Shown here: piece after piece, positions 30,021-37,474 of the stretch
How positions within the stretch are numbered: position 1 is the first letter of the stretch
How the letters are laid out: each line of letters begins with the position of its first letter
From: an uncultured Candidatus Saccharibacteria bacterium
GTDB lineage: Bacteria; Patescibacteriota; Minisyncoccia; Phycocordibacterales; CALRHW01
Length of the DNA: 37,474 bases
Direction of reading: 5' to 3'
Assembly (NCBI GenBank): GCA_964441885.1
Contig: CAYTVX010000001.1
Span: 6,559-44,032 of the forward strand
Translations under genes and position numbers: made by a program
The notes under the pieces: generated by a model
The model's database searches: none
The model's input: only the letters and a program-made list of their open reading frames with translations
Told to the model about the DNA's origin: nothing

Positions 30021-31331
30021 CTACAAATCTACTGGTGTAGCCAAATCATTGGCAATTGTGTTTATATCCCCGGCTCCCATCGTAATAAGCACCTCATCTT
30101 TTTTTAAAGAATTAAGTGCCTCAGAAATACTGTCCAAGCTATCATAAGCTCGGACATTTCCTCTGTGATTTGCTCGTATCTTTTCAGCAACCATCTCAGA
30201 TGAAATGCTTGGATCAAAAGACTCACGGGCCGCATATATAGGAGCGAGTAAAACATTATCAGCATCTTTAAAAGCATCCGCAAAATCCTCTAGATGATCT
30301 TTTGTCCTACTGTAAAGGTGTGGCTGAAAAGCTACTGTAATTTTTTTGCTAGGAAATAATTCCCGCGCCATAGAAAGTGTTGCCTTTATCTCTGTAGGAT
30401 GGTGTGCATAATCGTCATATACATCGGCTCCATAAATAGTTTTTCCTCTGTATTCAAAACGTCTCCACGTACCACTAAAAGTATTTAGAGAATTTAAAGC
30501 TGTTTTTTCCTCTATACCTAAAATAGACGCCACAGCAAGTGCTGCGCCAGCGTTTTTTTTATTATGATCACCCGGTAAATGAATAGCATGCTTTGCGTCT
30601 GCTAGAGAATAATCACGAATCGCACAACGAAGCCCACTGATTACTTGCGGAATATTTTCATCACTAGGATTGCACACTAAATAATCCTCTATAGTAATAC
30701 GTGAAGCCAGCTCTCTAAACGCAGACTGAATATCTGCTATATCCTTATAATAATCTAAATGATCATCATCAATGTTGGTAATTACTAAAATATTTGGATG
30801 CAAATTTAAAAATGACCTTTTGTACTCACAAGCTTCTACCACAAAATACTTGCTCTTTCCGGCAATAAAATTACTTTTTTGATCTTTTAATGAACTGCCC
30901 ACAATGACAGTTGGCTCCAAACCAGCGTCCAACAAAATTTTTGCAATCATCGCCGTTGTTGTAGTTTTACCATGAGTGCCAGATACAGCAATCGTAAATT
31001 TTTCTTTAGAAATAACCCCCAGCATTTCTGGATACGAAAGTACTGGCACACCTAGTGTTCGTGCATATTCTAAAATTTCTGGCTTGATTGTATTCCACGC
31101 AATACTATAAACAATCAAATCTGCTGTTTTGGGAATCACAGAATTGTCTGTACCAATTTTTGTATCTACACCAAATTTGCGCAAAGCTCCCACCATTTCA
31201 AATTCATCCAAATCATTGCCCGTAACAACTTTTCCTTCCAAAGCCATCATCCGAGCTATAGCAGAAATACCGATTCCTCCGATTCCTATAAAATGCGCAT
31301 GTTTTATTTTTGAAATATCAATATCTTTCAT
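30021..31331 (-). CDS. murC: UDP-N-acetylmuramate--L-alanine ligase MurC
   Basis: 'HAHFIGIGGIGISAIA', 'VSGTHGKTTTTAMI' and 'DDYAHHPTEI'. The track start at 31367 is a TTG. The ATG at 31331 (MKDIDISKIKHAHF) gives the canonical N-terminus. Confidence 0.93.
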   Translation of the reverse strand: MKDIDISKIKHAHFIGIGGIGISAIARMMALEGKVVTGNDLDEFEMVGALRKFGVDTKIGTDNSVIPKTADLIVYSIAWNTIKPEILEYARTLGVPVLSYPEMLGVISKEKFTIAVSGTHGKTTTTAMIAKILLDAGLEPTVIVGSSLKDQKSNFIAGKSKYFVVEACEYKRSFLNLHPNILVITNIDDDHLDYYKDIADIQSAFRELASRITIEDYLVCNPSDENIPQVISGLRCAIRDYSLADAKHAIHLPGDHNKKNAGAALAVASILGIEEKTALNSLNTFSGTWRRFEYRGKTIYGADVYDDYAHHPTEIKATLSMARELFPSKKITVAFQPHLYSRTKDHLEDFADAFKDADNVLLAPIYAARESFDPSISSEMVAEKIRANHRGNVRAYDSLDSISEALNSLKKDEVLITMGAGDINTIANDLATPVDL

Positions 31332-31338
31332 TGACCTT

Positions 31339-31367
31339 ACTATACCCGTAAACAGAACTCCCTTCAA
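31339..31367 (-). promoter_or_regulatory. candidate murC promoter TTGAAG-17-TATAGT, with the -10 ending 7 nt before the ATG (leaderless mRNA predicted)
   Basis: Minus strand: TTGAAG (31367-31362), a 17-nt spacer, TATAGT (31344-31339), then aaggtca and the ATG. Confidence 0.5.
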
Positions 31368-31378
31368 TATAGAGACCG

Positions 31379-31407
31379 TTGACTTGTTTACAAAATAACT
31401 ATATGGT
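31379..31407 (+). promoter_or_regulatory. candidate promoter for the plus-strand GC-rich gene (TTGACT plus a TATATG/TATGGT-like -10)
   Basis: TTGACT lies at 31379-31384, with an imperfect -10 15-17 nt downstream. It is back-to-back with the murC promoter. Confidence 0.3.
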
Positions 31408-31487
31408 TTTTAAGGACATTTCTGTCCTACCGCATACGAAAGAACACTCCAAACAATAGTCCCTTGAAAAAGGAAGGAAGATAGAAA

Positions 31488-32513
31488 ATGGAAACAACTC
31501 ATACCGATGATTGCCCAAAGCCTAAAAGGACTTTCTTGAAGTCCCTCGACGGCGTCACGATCGCCCTTTACGGACAAGCAAGCGGTGACTGGTCAACCCG
31601 ATCATGGGAGCCAGACACATCCGTGGAGCTGCGCAACAACCTGCCTACGTATCAGCGATTGAGCAGGATTGGGGAAAAGTTTGGTGCACAAAGCATCTAC
31701 TTCCCCAGACCAGACAAGTTCAACGGCAAGATCGACGCTAGTTGCCTAAACGCCGAATCCGACACCTTGCCAACCGCCGACAAGTGGCACAAGATCAGGA
31801 CAAACGGCAGCAAGACAACCATCTTGCGTGGCCCGTTGGTGGATGGAGCAATCTTCGGCCCAGGCCAAGGATTCTTCATCAACTCAGCGGACTGCCCAAC
31901 GATCGTGGCCCGCTATCTGGGTATGACCATCGCCACACATGCAGGACGAGAATGCCTCTACGACAAGTGCCTTGCGCAAACCGGCAAGAAGACTGAGGGG
32001 CGTGAACACGAAAGCGTCGTCTTTGCCATAGTCGACACGTTCAAGCAACTGGCGACAAAGCGTGGGGTGACTTTTAATCCCAACGGCATCCACGTGTTCA
32101 TCACGTGTGGCATTGCAGGAAAAAACTTCGAACACAGGCTTGACCACCCGAATTTTGGTCCAGCCAACCGAAGGATGATCCCGCACCTGCTTCAGAGTTT
32201 TCCAACGCTGCCGGGGTACCCACACGTTCTCAAACCATTTGAAGCCGGGATGATCTCTCTGCACAATCTGGCCAGAGCTCAGCTCCACATGTGTGGGGTA
32301 CCAGAGATGAACGTGTCGTCAGACGGCATCAACACCTACGATGACATCGTCCCCAGCAGAGCCCACACTAAAAACCGCAAATTCATTTGGCACAGCTACC
32401 GCCGATATGAAGAAGAATGCGCCTTGGAGTGTGCGCAGAGCGGAATGGACCCTTATTCGTTCTCAAGTCCAGAGTGCAGATATCGCAACGGGGTGCTCGT
32501 AGTGTCCCGTTGA
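31488..32513 (+). CDS. divergent YfiH/PgeF-family protein (DUF152, Cu-oxidase_4 / LACC1-like), on a GC-rich insert
   Basis: By-eye alignment to E. coli YfiH blocks: 'FINSADCPTIVA' with 'VMTADCLPVLF'; 'IATHAGRECL' with 'AAVHAGWRGL'; 'ITCGIAGKNFEH' with 'LGPAIGPRAFEV'; 'LHNLARAQLHMCGVPEMNV...TYDD...FIWHSYRR' with 'IYQLARQRLANVGVEQIF...TYTE...FFSYRR'. An SD-like AAGGAAGGAAG lies upstream and the stop is TGA. Confidence 0.7.
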   Translation: METTHTDDCPKPKRTFLKSLDGVTIALYGQASGDWSTRSWEPDTSVELRNNLPTYQRLSRIGEKFGAQSIYFPRPDKFNGKIDASCLNAESDTLPTADKWHKIRTNGSKTTILRGPLVDGAIFGPGQGFFINSADCPTIVARYLGMTIATHAGRECLYDKCLAQTGKKTEGREHESVVFAIVDTFKQLATKRGVTFNPNGIHVFITCGIAGKNFEHRLDHPNFGPANRRMIPHLLQSFPTLPGYPHVLKPFEAGMISLHNLARAQLHMCGVPEMNVSSDGINTYDDIVPSRAHTKNRKFIWHSYRRYEEECALECAQSGMDPYSFSSPECRYRNGVLVVSR

Positions 32514-32556
32514 ATCACACTCGATCCGTGATGCCTCAACCTACCTTACCTCCTTC

Positions 32557-33966
32557 CTACGCGCCCCGCTTGTCTTTACCGACGGCGGGGCGTTTCTTTT
32601 TTTCAATTTTATTTTTAAAATTTTTTACAATTTTATCAAATTGATCTCCTCTATCAAATTCATTTGTAAACATGCCAAAAGAAGCAAATCCAGGACTAAA
32701 CAAAATACTATCCCCACTGCGAGCATAGAAAAAAGCTTGAGTAAAAGCTTCTTCTAGATCTTTCGCCTCTACCACATGCACATCTTGTAACATCTGCATC
32801 TCCGGCTTTATTTTTTCTGTGCCTGTCGTATTTTTACCAGACAAAAGCACCACAGTCGTAGTTATTTCTGGTATACGATTAAGTACTGGACTCATATCTA
32901 GATTTTTATCAGCACCACCCATAATAAGAACGATATTTTTATTTTCCCCAAGTGCGTTTAGTGCAACCAAAAGTGAATCTGGGGTAGTAGACGTTGTGTC
33001 ATTGTATATATCCACACCACCGATGGTACGCACAAGCTGCATTCTACCCTCCACACCAGAAAATTTAGTAATTGATTCTTTTATAACATCCTCTCCAATC
33101 TGCAAAATATTGCCAACAGCAAAAGCAAGCTCTGCATTTCTTTTGTTGTGTTCACCCTTTGTTTGCAAACGCCAAGAATCAGGAATGGAAAGTGGCATCA
33201 TAAAATGACTTTTCAACTTTGGATACTTAGTTTGTATTTTTTTAAGTAAATCTTTTGGTGCAACCAAATAATCATTTACTATCTGTGATGTAAAAATTTT
33301 TGCTTTATCATCCCAATATAATTCCCTATCATTTTTATAATAATTAAGATGATCATCCATGAAATTGGTGAAAACTGCGATATGAGGACTAATGCCACCA
33401 TCACCAAATCCCTGCAGCTGCCAAGACGAGAGCTCAAGTACAGCGATATCCCCTGCTTTTACCTTTTTAAGCAAAGGCAAAGTCGCAACACCACGAATAT
33501 TGCCACCAAGAAAAATGCGCTGTTTCCATTTGAGTTTTTTCTTTGCATGCAAAAGCATTTCATATATGAGCATTGTGGTCGTAGTCTTACCACGAGTACC
33601 AGTCACCCCTATCAGAGTTACATCTGGCGCAAGCTTTGCAAAAAGAGACTCGTCCATTTCTACAGGAATATCGTGAGCGCGAGCCTCTGCAATAAACGAC
33701 GAGTCGAGAGGTATGCCAGCAGATTTTAAAATCATATCCCTATCACGAAAATCCTCCAGCCTATGCTCACCGAGCACATATTTTATTTTTCTAAATTTTT
33801 TAAGCTTTTTTAAGGTCGGCGCCAAATCCTCTGCACTTTTTAAATCAGTCACTATCAAATCCGCCCCGCACTCTGCAAGAAAAGCCACATCAGCTAGCCC
33901 CCTACCGAGCAAACCAAGACCCATGACGGTAATTTTTTTCTTTTTAAAATATTCTTTGTAATTCAT
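32557..33966 (-). CDS. murD: UDP-N-acetylmuramoylalanine--D-glutamate ligase MurD
   Basis: 'ITVMGLGLLGRG', 'GVTGTRGKTTTTML' and 'GEHNKRNAELA'. The track start at 33975 is a TTG, and the ATG at 33966 (MNYKEYF) is preferred. The last ~14 codons lie in the GC-rich terminator of the convergent gene. Confidence 0.92.
   Translation of the reverse strand: MNYKEYFKKKKITVMGLGLLGRGLADVAFLAECGADLIVTDLKSAEDLAPTLKKLKKFRKIKYVLGEHRLEDFRDRDMILKSAGIPLDSSFIAEARAHDIPVEMDESLFAKLAPDVTLIGVTGTRGKTTTTMLIYEMLLHAKKKLKWKQRIFLGGNIRGVATLPLLKKVKAGDIAVLELSSWQLQGFGDGGISPHIAVFTNFMDDHLNYYKNDRELYWDDKAKIFTSQIVNDYLVAPKDLLKKIQTKYPKLKSHFMMPLSIPDSWRLQTKGEHNKRNAELAFAVGNILQIGEDVIKESITKFSGVEGRMQLVRTIGGVDIYNDTTSTTPDSLLVALNALGENKNIVLIMGGADKNLDMSPVLNRIPEITTTVVLLSGKNTTGTEKIKPEMQMLQDVHVVEAKDLEEAFTQAFFYARSGDSILFSPGFASFGMFTNEFDRGDQFDKIVKNFKNKIEKKKRPAVGKDKRGA
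32562..32603 (+). terminator. GC-rich intrinsic terminator of the plus-strand gene, embedded in the murD 3' coding end
   Basis: cgccccgc (32562-32569) pairs with gcggggcg (32585-32592), followed by tttcttttttt. Confidence 0.75.
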
Positions 33967-33999
33967 ACTCAGCAAATACAGTGTTGCTGATATTATATC

Positions 34000-35421
34000 C
34001 TAAATCACCTCAACCACGAGCATGTTTGTCTTCACACCCTTTTTATTGAAAGGCGCACCAGCGACGACTACTACCTTGTCCCCTTTTTTCGCCAGTTTAT
34101 TTTTTAAACAAAAAGCACGCACAAAATTGAAAGCGTCAGATAAAGTCAGAAATCTTTTTATACAAACAGGATAACAACCAAAGCTCAAACTGAGTTTATT
34201 ACACACCCTTTCGTTGGGTGAAAGAGCCATGATGAGTGAAGTGGGCTTGTGTCGCGACACCATACGCGCAGAAAATCCAGTCTCAGTCAGAGCAAAAATA
34301 AGTTTTGCGTCCACGTCATGAGCAGTATTTACTACAGACTTAGTGATTGAGTTTACAATATCCATTTCACCATTTTCAAGCGCCTCGATATCAAATCTTT
34401 CACAATGATCACGCTCTACTTCTACGGCCACGCGAGACATTACCTCCACAGCTTCTACTGGAAATCTACCCAAAGTCGTCTCCTCTGAAAGCATCACTGC
34501 ATCTGTGCCGTCAAAAATAGCATTAGCAATATCAGACACCTCTGCTCGAGTCGGGACGGGTGCGTTTATCATAGACTCGAGCATTTGTGTCGCAGTAATG
34601 ACTGGCTTACCCGCATCATTACATTTTTTAATAATCATCTTTTGTATCATTGGCACTTTTTCTGCAGGCACTTCAATAGACAGATCTCCGCGCGCCACCA
34701 TAATGCCATCAGACAGCTCAATAATTTTATCAATATTTTCTACAGCTTCAGGTGTCTCTATCTTTGAAATAATTCCAGCGTCGAGCTTTGCTTTTTTCAT
34801 CATTTCTCTTAGCTCAAGCACATCCTCCGGTCGACGCACAAAAGAAAGCGCCATAAAATCAACTTTGTTTTTTACACCAAACTGAAAATCCTTTTTATCT
34901 TTTTCTGTAATCGAGCTGATTTTCAGATACGCACCAGGCAAATTGACCCCACGTCGACCTTTTGTATCTCCACCCACAATCACCTTACACTTCACCTCGC
35001 TTCCTTTTACACTCACAATCTGCAATTTCTTTTTTCCATCATCAAGAAGAACGAAACCTCCCACTTTTACCTCTCTTGGCAGATTTGGATAATTTACATA
35101 TACACGTTTTTCATTACCCACTATTTTTTCAGTAGTCAATGTGAAAAATTCCCCTTCTTTCAATTGGATTCTTTCGGTTGCAAAATCTCCGATGCGGATT
35201 TTTGGACCAGAAAGGTCTTGCAAAATCGCCACATTTTTACACATTTTTTTTGCTAACTTCCTTGTTACGTCTACACGCCTTTGATGCTCAGTATGATCAC
35301 CGTGGGAAAAATTGAGGCGCACTACATCAAGACCAGCAGAAAAAAGCCTCGTCATCATTTCTTCACTTTCTGTCGCCGGACCTATGGTTGCGACGATTTT
35401 TGTTTTTTTCTGAATATTCAT
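34000..35421 (-). CDS. pyk: pyruvate kinase
   Basis: 'KKTKIVATIGPA', 'VRLNFSHG' and 'IMVARGDLSIEVP'. The start was set at the ATG at 35421 (MNIQKK) because the longer track ORF (to 35469) runs into the tRNA gene. Confidence 0.93.
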   Translation of the reverse strand: MNIQKKTKIVATIGPATESEEMMTRLFSAGLDVVRLNFSHGDHTEHQRRVDVTRKLAKKMCKNVAILQDLSGPKIRIGDFATERIQLKEGEFFTLTTEKIVGNEKRVYVNYPNLPREVKVGGFVLLDDGKKKLQIVSVKGSEVKCKVIVGGDTKGRRGVNLPGAYLKISSITEKDKKDFQFGVKNKVDFMALSFVRRPEDVLELREMMKKAKLDAGIISKIETPEAVENIDKIIELSDGIMVARGDLSIEVPAEKVPMIQKMIIKKCNDAGKPVITATQMLESMINAPVPTRAEVSDIANAIFDGTDAVMLSEETTLGRFPVEAVEVMSRVAVEVERDHCERFDIEALENGEMDIVNSITKSVVNTAHDVDAKLIFALTETGFSARMVSRHKPTSLIMALSPNERVCNKLSLSFGCYPVCIKRFLTLSDAFNFVRAFCLKNKLAKKGDKVVVVAGAPFNKKGVKTNMLVVEVI

Positions 35422-35455
35422 ATAAATAAAACGGCGCCAATGAAGGCGCAAAAAT
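35422..35455 (-). terminator. short hairpin plus U-tract immediately 3' of tRNA-Ile and 5' of pyk
   Basis: The minus strand reads gcgcc-ttcatt-ggcgc, then cgttttatttat, then the pyk ATG. The stem is only 5 bp. Confidence 0.35.
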
Positions 35456-35457
35456 AC

Positions 35458-35533
35458 TGGTGCGCGCACTAGGGGTCGAACCTAGGACCTTTCGAGTATC
35501 AGTCGAATGCTCTACCAACTGAGCTATGCGCGC
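35458..35533 (-). tRNA. tRNA-Ile (anticodon GAU), CCA encoded
   Basis: Folded by hand from the minus strand: acceptor GCGCGCA/TGCGCGC, D-arm GCTC-AGTTGGTA-GAGC, anticodon arm TTCGA-CTGATAC-TCGAA, variable loop AGGTC, T-arm CTAGG-TTCGACC-CCTAG, discriminator A and CCA. Confidence 0.9.
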
Positions 35534-35692
35534 AAACAAAACTATATGCCCATAAAATCTAACAAAAATCAGTCGATAATACAAGAACAGAATGTTGTAA
35601 CCTCATAAGTAAGTGCGGGCGCCCAACATCAGTTGTGCGCCCGCGAGGGTACCCTTTCGGGCAATGATTGTAATGCTTGGTTGTGCGACTTT

Positions 35693-35938
35693 TTAGGCCG
35701 CAGACGGAGAAGGATCGGACTCCTCCGACATGCCAGCGTTGCGCTCGATTGCGCGAAGCAGAAGTCGTGCTCGGTCACGAATGGAGAGAGGGGTAACGCT
35801 GCTCTCCTCGCGCAACACATCGAGCACGCGATCACAGCAGATCTTCAGAACGTCGGGGTTCTTCTCCAGATCGTCGAGTCGGTCACGAGCTTCTTCAGCT
35901 CGAATCCGGGATACGGAATCAGTCGTGGACTTCTTCAT
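35693..35938 (-). CDS. 81-aa helical, charged orphan protein on a second GC-rich insert
   Basis: This is the most protein-like of four overlapping frames: amphipathic and charged ('RIRAEEARDRLDDLEKNPDVLK...RDRARLLLRAIERN'), with GC-biased third positions and an AAGGA 8 nt upstream of the ATG. I recognise no family. Confidence 0.45.
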   Translation of the reverse strand: MKKSTTDSVSRIRAEEARDRLDDLEKNPDVLKICCDRVLDVLREESSVTPLSIRDRARLLLRAIERNAGMSEESDPSPSAA

Positions 35939-36070
35939 CTAATTGCATCCTTGCATTGTGTGGTATTTTTATTACCACAAAGGAACTGAAAGGTGTGACA
36001 CAGTGTCCCACCGCAAACCAAAGGGTATCATCATAAAACATCAATGTCAAGTTGATACAAATAACGCACA

Positions 36071-36097: not shown

Positions 36098-36252
36098 ATT
36101 TTTCTGATACTATTCTTTATTTTGTTCCGTTCACATCGTCTTTCCGACTGTCATGCTACTTTAAGGATGTTTAGCAATAATCCGTTTCTGAGCTCAATTG
36201 AGGCTCAGAAATCGACTGTAAGTTTTGTCACAAAAGTGACAAAACGATTTTC

Positions 36253-37474
36253 ATTTGAAATACTCCACGAGCAGCTTCCGCTACCCGTGCCTTGTTACGA
36301 CTTACTCCCTGTCATTGAGCTTACCTTAGGACCACATACGTGATATTTCGGGTATTCCCAACTCCCTTGAGTTGACGGGCGGATTGCGATAATTAAACAA
36401 CATTTCGCGTTCCCACGTAGCGTGCGGATTTCCCGCACTACGCGAGTCCAACAATTATGCAAATTGCATAAACTATTGGTTTTGTCCTTCCTAAATTTAT
36501 ATTTTGAACCATTATGAAGAGGGAAGGAAGTGATGCTTCTGAAGTGTTTACCCTCAGCTTGGGGAACGTGACCCATGGTTTTTTTATTGAGGTGCCTACC
36601 TCATACACGATCTTCGTTCTTCCCTCCCTCATAATGATCCAAAATAAAATCTAGTACTACGACGCAGCTGACTTCTCATGATACTTATAAATTGTTTTTA
36701 TATCACGAGATCTCCCAAGGGTCAGTAATAATTCTTTTCCCTGCATCCTATTTGAGATTTTTTTAATACTTCCCCATGACTCACCTAATGGGTCGTATCT
36801 CTCTTTTTTTAAATAGGCTGCTATTTGCTACTAGGATCCTTCACCTGCCAGCCTCACGGCCAACCGATTACCCTTTCGCTACTCTCCAAAAAATGGAGGT
36901 GTTGATTTTAACAACATAGATTTATTACCTGCCTGGCGCTTTTAATTCTGAGTACAAGACTTGAGAACGTATTCACCGCAGTATAGCTGACCTGCGATTA
37001 CTAGCAATTCCAACTTCATGGGGTCGAGTTGCAGCCCCCAATCTGAACTGGGGCGACTTTTCTTACGATTAGCTCAGGGTTACCCCGTCGCAACGCGTTG
37101 TAGTCGCCATTGTATTATGTGTGTAGCCCCGGATATCAGAGGGACATGCTGACCTGGCGTCATCCTCGCCTTCCTCCCCGTATATTATGTCCAAAATTTC
37201 TTTTGGGCACACTATACGGGGCAGTCTCGCCTGACAAATATAACAGGCAACAAGGGTTGCGTTCGTTACCCCACTTAAGGGAACAATTCAAACCACGAAC
37301 TGACGACGGCCATGCATCACCTGTCAACTAGTCTTGCGAGGGCCCCGGTTTCTCGGGGCTTTCACGTTGATTTCTAACCTTGGTAAGGTTCTTCGTTTAT
37401 CGTCGAATTAAACCACATAATCCACTGCTTGTGCAAGTCCCCGTCTATTCCTTTGAGTTTTAACCTTGCGGTCG
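36253..37474 (-). rRNA. rrs: 16S rRNA gene, 3' part (E. coli ~895 to the 3' end), interrupted by an insertion; continues beyond the window
   Basis: Conserved blocks on the minus strand include AAACTCAAAGGAATAGACGG, GTGGTTTAATTCGA, GCATGGCCGTCGTCAG, AACGAACGCAACCC, GGCTACACAC, GGAATTGCTAGTAATCGC, GGTGAATACGTTC, CCGCCCGTCA and GTCGTAACAAGG. Helix 45 has a GGAA loop. The 3' end is approximate. Helix 40 carries an expansion of about 30 nt (37166-37222). Confidence 0.93.
36383..36948 (-). other. ~566-nt intervening sequence (putative intron/IVS) within the 16S gene at E. coli position ~1396/1397
   Basis: The universal CTTGTAC(A/T)CA|CCGCCCGTCA is split: cttgtactca ends at 36949 and ccgcccgtca starts at 36382. 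The insert contains GNRA-capped hairpins and long-range complementary G/A- and C/T-rich arms. No convincing ORF is present. The boundaries are uncertain by a few nt. Confidence 0.75.

Follow-up and report, generated by a model that had tools for sequence, protein, structure and literature searches.

The YfiH-like gene between murC and murD

We analyzed a stretch of 37,474 nucleotides (nt), here called the window, from an uncultured Candidatus Saccharibacteria bacterium (assembly GCA_964441885.1, contig CAYTVX010000001.1, positions 6,559 to 44,032 of the forward strand). The element under study is a plus-strand open reading frame (ORF) for a YfiH-like protein, flanked by murC and murD, both on the minus strand (Table 1). 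A scan with MurD puts the window in Parcubacteria/Paceibacterota. The wider neighbors are pyruvate kinase, an rRNA operon, and glycosyltransferases, which makes the division and cell wall (dcw) cluster named in a first-pass annotation of this DNA a generous description. As that annotation had also stated, the YfiH-like gene stands alone in its orientation: it is the sole real plus-strand gene of the window, and the other plus-strand ORFs of at least 110 amino acids (aa) are shadows of larger minus-strand ORFs or lie in the rRNA spacer.

The gene coincides with a GC-rich block, whose existence, already claimed at first pass, was confirmed by GC windows, segmentation, and dinucleotide usage. In 300-nt windows, GC content was 0.53 to 0.56 over positions 31500 to 32550, versus 0.33 to 0.40 on either side. 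The block found by cumulative-sum segmentation is about one ORF in extent. Its left edge lies about 50 nt within the ORF, some 120 nt inside the boundary first proposed (31420), and its right edge is the 3' arm of a terminator hairpin. The kilobases flanking it have GC contents of 0.368 and 0.359, and the remaining 1.1-kb windows do not exceed 0.464. GC at third codon positions (GC3) is 0.643 in the ORF and 0.23 to 0.37 in all 27 other genes. With a GC content of 0.54 versus 0.38 and a GC3 of 0.64 versus 0.29, the gene has the atypical composition expected of a recently acquired island. Its third positions (C, 0.40; T, 0.15; G, 0.25; A, 0.20) differ from those in the rest of the window (C, 0.10; T, 0.41) mainly by an excess of C replacing T. 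The GC-normalized dinucleotide distance (delta*) of the block, 0.139, was the most deviant of 94 windows; the other 93 had values of 0.073 ± 0.021, with a maximum of 0.118.

The junctions of the block, at which a chimeric assembly had been considered, are crossed singly or together by contigs L001 to L004 at 99.6 to 100% identity. Three of these sources are sequencing runs (SRR12762304, SRR12762303, and SRR31051132), and the fourth is an NCBI metagenome (GCA_020050275.1). Because four independent assemblies span it, the block is not a product of misassembly. A repeat search around the block yielded no terminal inverted repeats, direct repeats, or target duplications, only short chance matches. 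A tblastn search of 72,556 plasmids and 50,697 phages found no homologues, and there is no mobility gene in the 1.3 kb separating murC and murD.

A divergent YfiH/PgeF-fold protein

AlphaFold, with a 56-member alignment as input, modeled the 341-aa protein with a predicted local distance difference test score (pLDDT) of 90.7. The 18 top Foldseek matches in the PDB were all YfiH/YlmD/PgeF structures (E, 7e-11 to 4e-8; target-normalized TM-score, 0.58 to 0.68) with 12 to 17% sequence identity; the next match was CheD, at 2.5e-4. A profile search of PDB sequences gave 10 weak matches, 9 of them to the YfiH family, and hhalign to E. coli YfiH (query sequence checked against 1Z9T) returned a probability of 96% (E = 4.5e-9). 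The hhalign alignment pairs the catalytic triad and the substrate-binding residues of the two proteins (Table 1); the roles of the E. coli residues are taken from PMC8844914. Within the 56-member family, the triad is kept in 54 (C136), 55 (H151), and 51 (D119) proteins, and S303, R306, R333, and N334 are invariant or nearly so. From the modeled fold, the ORF encodes a highly divergent YfiH/YlmD/PgeF-fold protein, a predicted cysteine hydrolase with a Cys-His-Asp triad. The YfiH/PgeF assignment made at first pass is therefore borne out by fold and catalytic residues, while the cutoffs of PF02578 and TIGR00726 are not reached (see Discussion).

The N-terminal 97 residues cannot be aligned to canonical YfiH and carry a family-specific FG..GDW...P.P..FN motif instead. 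A candidate column for loop L3 reads W100-H101 in the window and WQVH in L005, the sister Paceibacteria genome that holds the nearest homologue (45% identity, same slot; L numbers denote the loci compared). This column is not conserved in the family. An insertion at approximately residues 307 to 332 (the CALEC...PECRY segment) is common only to the window and its closest relative; L005 has one Cys there, and the others lack the segment. What had been described as a Cys-rich tail is thus a lineage-specific insertion.

The family is large. An exhaustive hidden Markov model (HMM) search found 1,125 cluster representatives at an E value of ≤1e-3 and 641 at ≤1e-10. Such a search was needed to reveal it: word-indexed protein searches gave four matches with the single sequence and six with the 56-sequence profile, and a metagenome scan with a 4-sequence alignment returned only five short loci. 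The relatives P0002 to P0004 have precomputed PF02578 matches, and P0002 and P0003 score 22 and 30.9 bits, respectively, with TIGR00726. This family of about 1,100 clusters is missed or barely detected by current Pfam and NCBIfam models.

The best structural matches are the Bacillota YlmD proteins (PDB 1T8H, 6T0Y, and 6T1B; Bacillus cereus PgeF, 7FBG), with target-normalized TM-scores of 0.63 to 0.66 and identities of 12 to 16%. Bacillus ylmD lies within the dcw cluster. It follows ftsZ and is co-oriented with its neighbors, whereas the window gene runs toward murD and away from murC. In complementation, YlmD can stand in for E. coli pgeF (PMC12280929). With E. coli YfiH/PgeF (PDB 1Z9T, 7F3V, and 7W1G), the window protein shares the fold (Foldseek E, ~1e-9), the triad, the SYRR motif, the C-terminal Arg235, and a putative functional tie to MurC, whose errors PgeF corrects (PMC8844914, PMC12280929). 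It differs in being 12 to 15% identical and in having about 100 extra residues as insertions, including residues 307 to 332, and the E. coli gene is without mur linkage. The C-terminal domain of FAMIN/LACC1, a vertebrate enzyme, belongs to the same fold superfamily and has the conserved Cys/His site but is eukaryotic, fused to other domains, and without a mur link. It has kept the fold and lost the precursor-editing activity (PMC12280929).

Promoter-like site, leader, and start signals

Upstream of the gene is a promoter-like site, with the string TTGACTnnTTnACAAAATAnnTATATGGTTTT present in both the window and L005; the leader is also partly shared. A purine-rich Shine-Dalgarno (SD)-like run, GGAAGGAAG, lies at 31472 to 31480, 5' of the ATG. 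An SD-like tetramer occurs at the first start of 1 of the 26 other window genes and of 8% of 111 genes in related loci, and an SD-like run is present in about half of the YfiH-like genes. The 3' end of 16S rRNA is without CCUCC in the window, as it is in all related loci that include this end (L005, L007, L009 to L013, L048, L059, and others). It is of the ...GTGGAGTATTTC type and reads ...GCTGCTCGTGGAGTATTTC at approximately 36250 to 36300 of the window. Anti-SD loss has been reported for a subgroup of Parcubacteria (PMC9297842), and the 16S 3' ends agree with that report. Since the 16S carries no anti-SD, the GGAAGGAAG run cannot function as a classical SD; the SD-like site counted at first pass among the gene's own signals exists as a sequence but not in that role.

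A small A-rich-loop hairpin (GGTCC-ACAAA-GGACC, GATCT-GAAAA-GATC) lies directly upstream of the purine run and start codon in L010 (8400 to 8440), L007, and L082. At 31458 to 31481 of the window, a weaker CCTT-GAAAA-AGG pairing includes the SD-like run. A leader hairpin may be a conserved element of YfiH-like genes.

In native genes, murC included, a TATAAT-like box often precedes the ATG by 7 to 20 nt, an arrangement suggestive of leaderless messages. If native messages are leaderless, the YfiH-like gene is one of few leadered genes. Translation of murC probably starts at ATG 31331. Upstream of this codon, at a distance of 7 nt, is a TATAGT box (31339 to 31344), and a TATAGT/TATTAT-before-ATG pattern is also found at murC of L005, L007, L010, and L012. 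The box suggests a leaderless-type promoter for murC, divergent from the YfiH-like promoter.

The terminator and the murD 3' end

Downstream of the YfiH-like gene, the hairpin is followed by UUUCUUUUUUU and folds at -27.5 kcal/mol (z = -4.74 [by RNA fold]). Hairpin and T-run make a credible plus-strand terminator, as the first-pass annotation had claimed. Comparable GC hairpins separate the convergent genes of L005, L007, L010, L033, L059, and L082.

The hairpin encodes the last 11 to 12 codons of murD (32557 to 32592; RPAVGKDKRGA and stop), the frame of which runs on through the block boundary; the hairpin overlaps murD likewise in L010. MurD is conserved up to ...RGDQFDKIVKNFK. Beyond this point, the tails of all relatives are rich in Lys and Arg and differ in sequence and length, whether the YfiH-like gene is present or absent. 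Because tails vary in all relatives, the hairpin-encoded codons of the window are one more variant of an unconserved tail. The overlap on which the first-pass annotation based a rewriting of the murD 3' end is real, but the rewriting was overstated.

Directly past the murD stop, at 32541 to 32556 on the minus strand, stands GGAAGGAGGTAAGG, a perfect SD-like string. A TTG and an ORF of 28 codons come next, the latter antisense to the last part of the YfiH-like gene. The string is probably there by chance, and the organism has no anti-SD.

Table 1. Coordinates of features in the window, residue equivalences between the window protein and E. coli YfiH, and positions of SLT-like genes in related loci
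Feature	Position	Strand	Details and basis
murC	30021..31367	-	Pfam Mur ligase domains
Promoter-like site	31379..31407	+	TTGACT-17-TATGGT; consensus scan; conserved in L005; putative function
Leader	31408..31487	+	~75 nt; host-like GC, 0.29 to 0.40
YfiH-like ORF	31488..32513	+	341 aa; sub-threshold PF02578, AlphaFold, Foldseek, hhalign
GC-rich block	31541..32592	.	1,052 nt; GC, 0.551; cumulative-sum segmentation
murD	32557..33975	-	Pfam MurD-like_N, Mur_ligase_M, Mur_ligase_C
Intrinsic terminator of YfiH-like gene (predicted)	32561..32604	+	Hairpin 32561-32593, then T-run; inside convergent murD 3' end
Catalytic triad	Asp119, Cys136, His151		E. coli Asp89, Cys107, His124; hhalign
MurNAc and UDP contacts	Tyr304, Arg305		E. 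coli Tyr227, Arg228; hhalign
Binds carboxylate of attached amino acid	Arg333		E. coli Arg235; hhalign
SLT-like gene	L005:12672-13175	-
SLT-like gene	L009:3302-3787
SLT-like gene	L010:4778-5215
SLT-like gene	L011:789-1283

Distribution and descent of the gene

Relatives were collected by a MurD scan of GTDB species representatives (80 species loci); these loci were then searched with tblastn and, ORF by ORF, with an HMM. The YfiH-like gene lies between murD and murC, convergent to murD, in L005, L007, L010, L012, and L082, whose MurD proteins are 71 to 80% identical to that of the window. The slot also holds the gene in the more distant L033, L048, L059, L069, L070, and L085, and L092 has the same arrangement. 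Besides the window, 12 loci thus have the slot filled: L005 and 11 that came from the GTDB scan. Elsewhere, the gene is found directly past murC (L035, L038, and L057), co-oriented and upstream of murD (L093 to L095), or adjoining murD or murC (L097, L090, and L091). The occurrence of family members beside murC and murD even in differing gene orders strengthens the functional coherence with MurC that had been claimed for the location. Other members are found away from mur genes: an ABC (ATP-binding cassette) exporter is downstream in L006, L096, and L100, L098 has another setting, and an oxidase is a neighbor among the non-mur contexts. All located homologues beside murC or murD are in Patescibacteria-type loci, and none is near canonical YfiH (L006, L096, L098, and L100 are other contexts, with taxonomy not established). 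This does not fit the first-pass idea of a higher-GC host as the donor.

Among the close relatives, only L008, L009, and L011 cleanly lack the gene. Just 1 to 5 nt separate their murD stop from the start of murC, which is also the arrangement of most distant relatives. The murD-murC junction is a general insertion slot in Paceibacteria, murD and murC abutting in most genomes. In L056 (4631 to 5389) the junction holds an Asp/Glu racemase, probably murI, and in L017, L021, and L022 it holds GC-elevated ORFs with no Pfam match.

We built neighbor-joining trees for the YfiH-like protein and for MurC and compared them. The clades {L048, L070, L069}, {L033, L085}, {L035, L057}, and {L007, L082} occur in both trees with bootstrap values of 67 to 100. 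Both trees also draw the AT-rich group containing the window as one clade, with a bootstrap value below 60 in each. The YfiH-like proteins of the window and L005 are sisters (bootstrap, 100). The congruent clades, together with the shared promoter and leader, argue for residence of the gene before the clades split, with later losses, or for transfers among close relatives only. The 12 to 17% identity to canonical YfiH argues against a donor outside the candidate phyla radiation (CPR), and no organism from outside the CPR turned up among the donors sampled. An island in one lineage only, absent from the site in relatives and incongruent in its tree, is not what these data describe. An incongruence between the gene and MurC in a local-alignment identity matrix (L070 nearer L057 than L069) was dropped, as it was not borne out by the bootstrapped global-alignment trees.

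By gene order and alignment, the YfiH-like gene is most plausibly an old lineage feature of Paceibacteria and no recent import from a host. The foreign insert proposed at first pass is contradicted by the same slot in many Paceibacteria, by the clade-level agreement with the MurC tree, and by a promoter and leader homologous to those of L005.

GC-richness recurs in AT-rich hosts

In 8 of 10 AT-rich hosts, the GC3 of the gene exceeds that of its flanks by 0.13 to 0.35 (window, +0.35; L005, +0.27; L059, +0.26; L012, +0.20; L010, +0.18; L098, +0.17; L007 and L082, +0.13 to +0.14). The difference in GC-richer hosts is -0.12 to +0.10 in 10 of 11, the exception being L035 (+0.15). Across these 21 loci, the GC3 of the gene rises with that of the host with a slope of 0.48.

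Conserved four-fold sites are saturated between the window and L005, with 0.40 alike versus 0.35 expected in murD and 0.30 versus 0.31 in murC. Given this saturation, we infer from a two-state relaxation argument that a gene evolving neutrally since a single transfer before the split should have lost most of its excess. The window gene, with its excess of +0.35, is therefore no such relic.

Several simple sources of the excess were rejected. Strand orientation does not produce it: other minority-strand genes in the 80 loci average +0.013 (n = 62), and complementing the native third-position frequencies predicts a GC3 of 0.29, not 0.64. Amino acid composition does not either, as native codon usage would give a gene GC content of 0.413 against the observed 0.539. 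A universal GC constraint on the family is contradicted by L097. Two accounts remain: repeated recent replacement by alleles from GC-richer relatives or a local GC-favoring force (biased gene conversion or selection).

A second gene behaves alike. A secreted SLT/lysozyme-like protein of about 150 to 165 aa is encoded between 16S and tRNA-Ile in L005, L007, L071, L009, L010, L011, and L012. These proteins are 48 to 63% identical to that of L005 (50 to 63% among the four compared directly). In the loci measured (L005, L009, L010, and L011), the GC3 of the gene is 0.51 to 0.70, versus 0.25 to 0.43 for the genomes, and A at third positions is 0.09 to 0.21. The SLT-like gene is thus a second GC-rich cell wall gene that keeps its position across the AT-rich clade.

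As a tentative idea, AT-rich Paceibacteria without an anti-SD may actively keep a small set of position-stable, vertically inherited cell wall genes GC-rich and purine-run leadered against AT drift, a gene-specific compositional homeostasis. The set would have at least two members, the PgeF-like gene and the SLT-like gene in the rRNA operon spacer. Recombination hot spots could cause it through local GC-biased gene conversion, or selection could favor a structured, GC-rich message. In the latter case, the GC-rich mRNA could confine initiation to the AT-rich start region on ribosomes that lack an anti-SD.

The rRNA operon end of the window

In the slot that holds the SLT-like gene in relatives, the window has a GC-rich 81-aa ORF (35693 to 35938, minus strand; GC, 0.57; GC3, 0.61), with an AAGGA run upstream and a GC hairpin downstream (~35620 to 35660). 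Pfam and NCBIfam gave no match for this ORF, and the fetched loci did not contain a homologue. The GC-rich stretch at 35550 to 36000 was rejected as a homologue of the L005 SLT-like gene, being nonhomologous and without an Rfam or Pfam match.

The 16S rRNA gene (36250 to 37474, minus strand) has an apparent insertion of about 0.5 kb (roughly 36400 to 36900) near E. coli position 1400, and the Rfam 16S match (36892 to 37474) skips helix 44. The true 16S 3' domain (CCGCCCGTCA ... AAGTCGTAACAAGGCA) is at approximately 36288 to 36383, within a stretch 92 to 97% identical to related loci. In the pyruvate kinase region (34000 to 35533), the longest ORF, from GTG 35469, overlaps tRNA-Ile (35458 to 35533) by 12 nt; the true start is probably the ATG at 35421. 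The genes for 16S, tRNA-Ile, pyruvate kinase, MurD, and MurC follow each other on one strand with no obvious terminator, an order that recurs in many related loci.

Discussion

The explanation that we favor, with a probability of roughly 0.55, is that the YfiH-like gene is a resident and largely vertically inherited gene of Paceibacteria, that it encodes a predicted PgeF-like editor, and that its GC-richness is recurrent. The gene would form a one-gene unit of a promoter, a leader of about 75 nt, the 341-aa ORF, and a hairpin terminator, with transcription from its own promoter stopping at the hairpin shared with the murD end. It would be a long-standing accessory gene of Paceibacteria (Parcubacteria), convergent after murD and divergent from murC, passed on mostly by vertical descent and lost in some lineages. 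The GC- and C3-richness would recur in AT-rich Paceibacteria by being maintained or renewed. Within the lineage, alleles may have been replaced repeatedly or gene conversion may have been biased; selection on codons or mRNA structure is another candidate cause.

PgeF/YfiH hydrolyzes UDP-MurNAc-L-Ser/Gly misbuilt by MurC, and Bacillus YlmD acts likewise (PMC12280929, PMC8844914). An editing function is the best guess here because the triad and the residues that hold the MurNAc-amino acid are kept and the linkage to murC and murD is persistent. We infer that the protein edits UDP-MurNAc-amino acid precursors. It would be a cytoplasmic amidohydrolase that strips wrong amino acids or peptides off the UDP-MurNAc precursors made by MurC, in the manner of PgeF.

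Several observations weigh against this explanation. On the side of function, PF02578 (Cu-oxidase_4/DUF152) scores 18.8 bits (E = 0.0012), below its gathering cutoff of 22.9, and covers residues 125 to 285 only; NCBIfam TIGR00726, the PgeF equivalog (cutoff, 141 bits), has no match to the window protein. Counterparts of Gln69, which governs Ser specificity, and of His71 (loop L3) are uncertain, the N-terminal alignment being of low confidence and the candidate column not conserved. The UDP diphosphate contacts Trp127/Arg128 align to Arg154/Glu155, an apparent replacement, and the substrate may therefore differ. The diverged specificity loop and diphosphate contacts leave room for another substrate. 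On the side of descent, the GC, C3, and dinucleotide anomaly of the gene looks foreign, and a vertically inherited neutral gene should have ameliorated, given the saturation. The AT-rich host L097 has an AT-rich copy (GC3, 0.32). The abutting murD and murC of L008, L009, and L011 could mean repeated gain rather than loss, and the trees cover only 13 taxa and are of limited quality.

A possible but less probable course of events is xenologous replacement. The slot would have long been YfiH-like, and the present allele of the window would have arrived more recently, as would, independently, those of L005, L012, and others. GC-richer Paceibacteria would have supplied them, with recombination taking place in the conserved murC and murD flanks, and they would not have ameliorated yet. 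The third-position composition of the window gene matches the genes of Paceibacteria genomes of about 50% GC, such as L093; its dinucleotide signature is an outlier; and, with synonymous sites saturated, it cannot be what is left of one ancient transfer. Replacement also agrees with the YfiH-like protein diverging fastest locally (45% identity, versus 61 to 87% for its neighbors), with a GC3 slope of only 0.48 on that of the host, and with the enrichment of SD-like runs upstream of the gene in genomes without an anti-SD. However, it needs independent recent events in nearly every AT-rich lineage sampled, from donors that mirror the host phylogeny, and the 80 species loci of the MurD scan include no GC-rich member of the close clade (MurD identity, ≥70%). 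The ends of murC and murD beside the block have no GC elevation, and L007 and L082 co-diverge (87% identity for the gene, 88% for MurC) with the GC excess kept.

Concerning function, it is rather unlikely that the YfiH fold here serves another reaction, such as one of the activities reported for FAMIN/YlmD (purine nucleoside phosphorylase or adenosine deaminase) or the cleavage of some other amide. The unconserved Gln69/His71 region and the apparently replaced Trp127/Arg128 would be at home with such a change, and so would the failure of even the relatives to reach TIGR00726, by more than 100 bits, the position of some members beside an ABC exporter or oxidase instead of mur genes, and the inosine bound by YlmD in PDB 6t1b. 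Yet the Cys-His-Asp triad and the equivalents of Arg235 and Tyr227/Arg228 are all kept, the murC/murD linkage survives rearrangements, and the nucleoside phosphorylase activity of bacterial PgeF is weak and physiologically irrelevant (PMC12280929).

It is very improbable that the gene is a foreign cassette, inserted between murC and murD from a higher-GC organism outside the CPR, for example the host of an episymbiont. The locus does resemble a horizontally acquired islet in its strong GC, codon, and dinucleotide anomaly, in its own promoter, SD-like run, and terminator, in its opposite orientation, and in its presence or absence among close relatives (with clean absence from L008, L009, and L011). 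Unlike such an islet, it has no integrase, tRNA target, or repeats and no plasmid or phage relatives; the same slot is used over deep clades, with more than 14 Paceibacteria loci carrying the gene and a tree congruent with that of MurC; and the anomaly recurs despite saturated synonymous sites. The nearest homologue belongs to a sister genome within Paceibacteria, where it fills this same slot, and canonical YfiH is distant, with family scores below threshold. An assembler joining a GC-rich kilobase of another organism to the contig would explain the abrupt compositional boundaries but has practically no chance of being true, as independent contigs cross the junctions, many other genomes have the architecture, and the murD frame continues over the boundary.

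What is new in the preferred explanation, residence with recurrent GC-richness, is a known enzyme family in strongly remodeled form, set in a gene context that is conserved and specific to Paceibacteria. The locus is also a warning that a textbook signature of horizontal gene transfer (GC, codons, dinucleotides, own signals, and reverse orientation) can mark an old, position-stable gene, which bears on the use of compositional islands to deduce which hosts episymbionts live on. That the GC excess outlasts synonymous saturation, and that a second cell wall gene shares the excess, is an evolutionary puzzle tractable with existing genomes. If the predicted function is true, Paceibacteria carry a recognizable, heavily remodeled MurC-proofreading enzyme physically tied to murC and murD, and the recently established PgeF editing pathway would extend to Patescibacteria.

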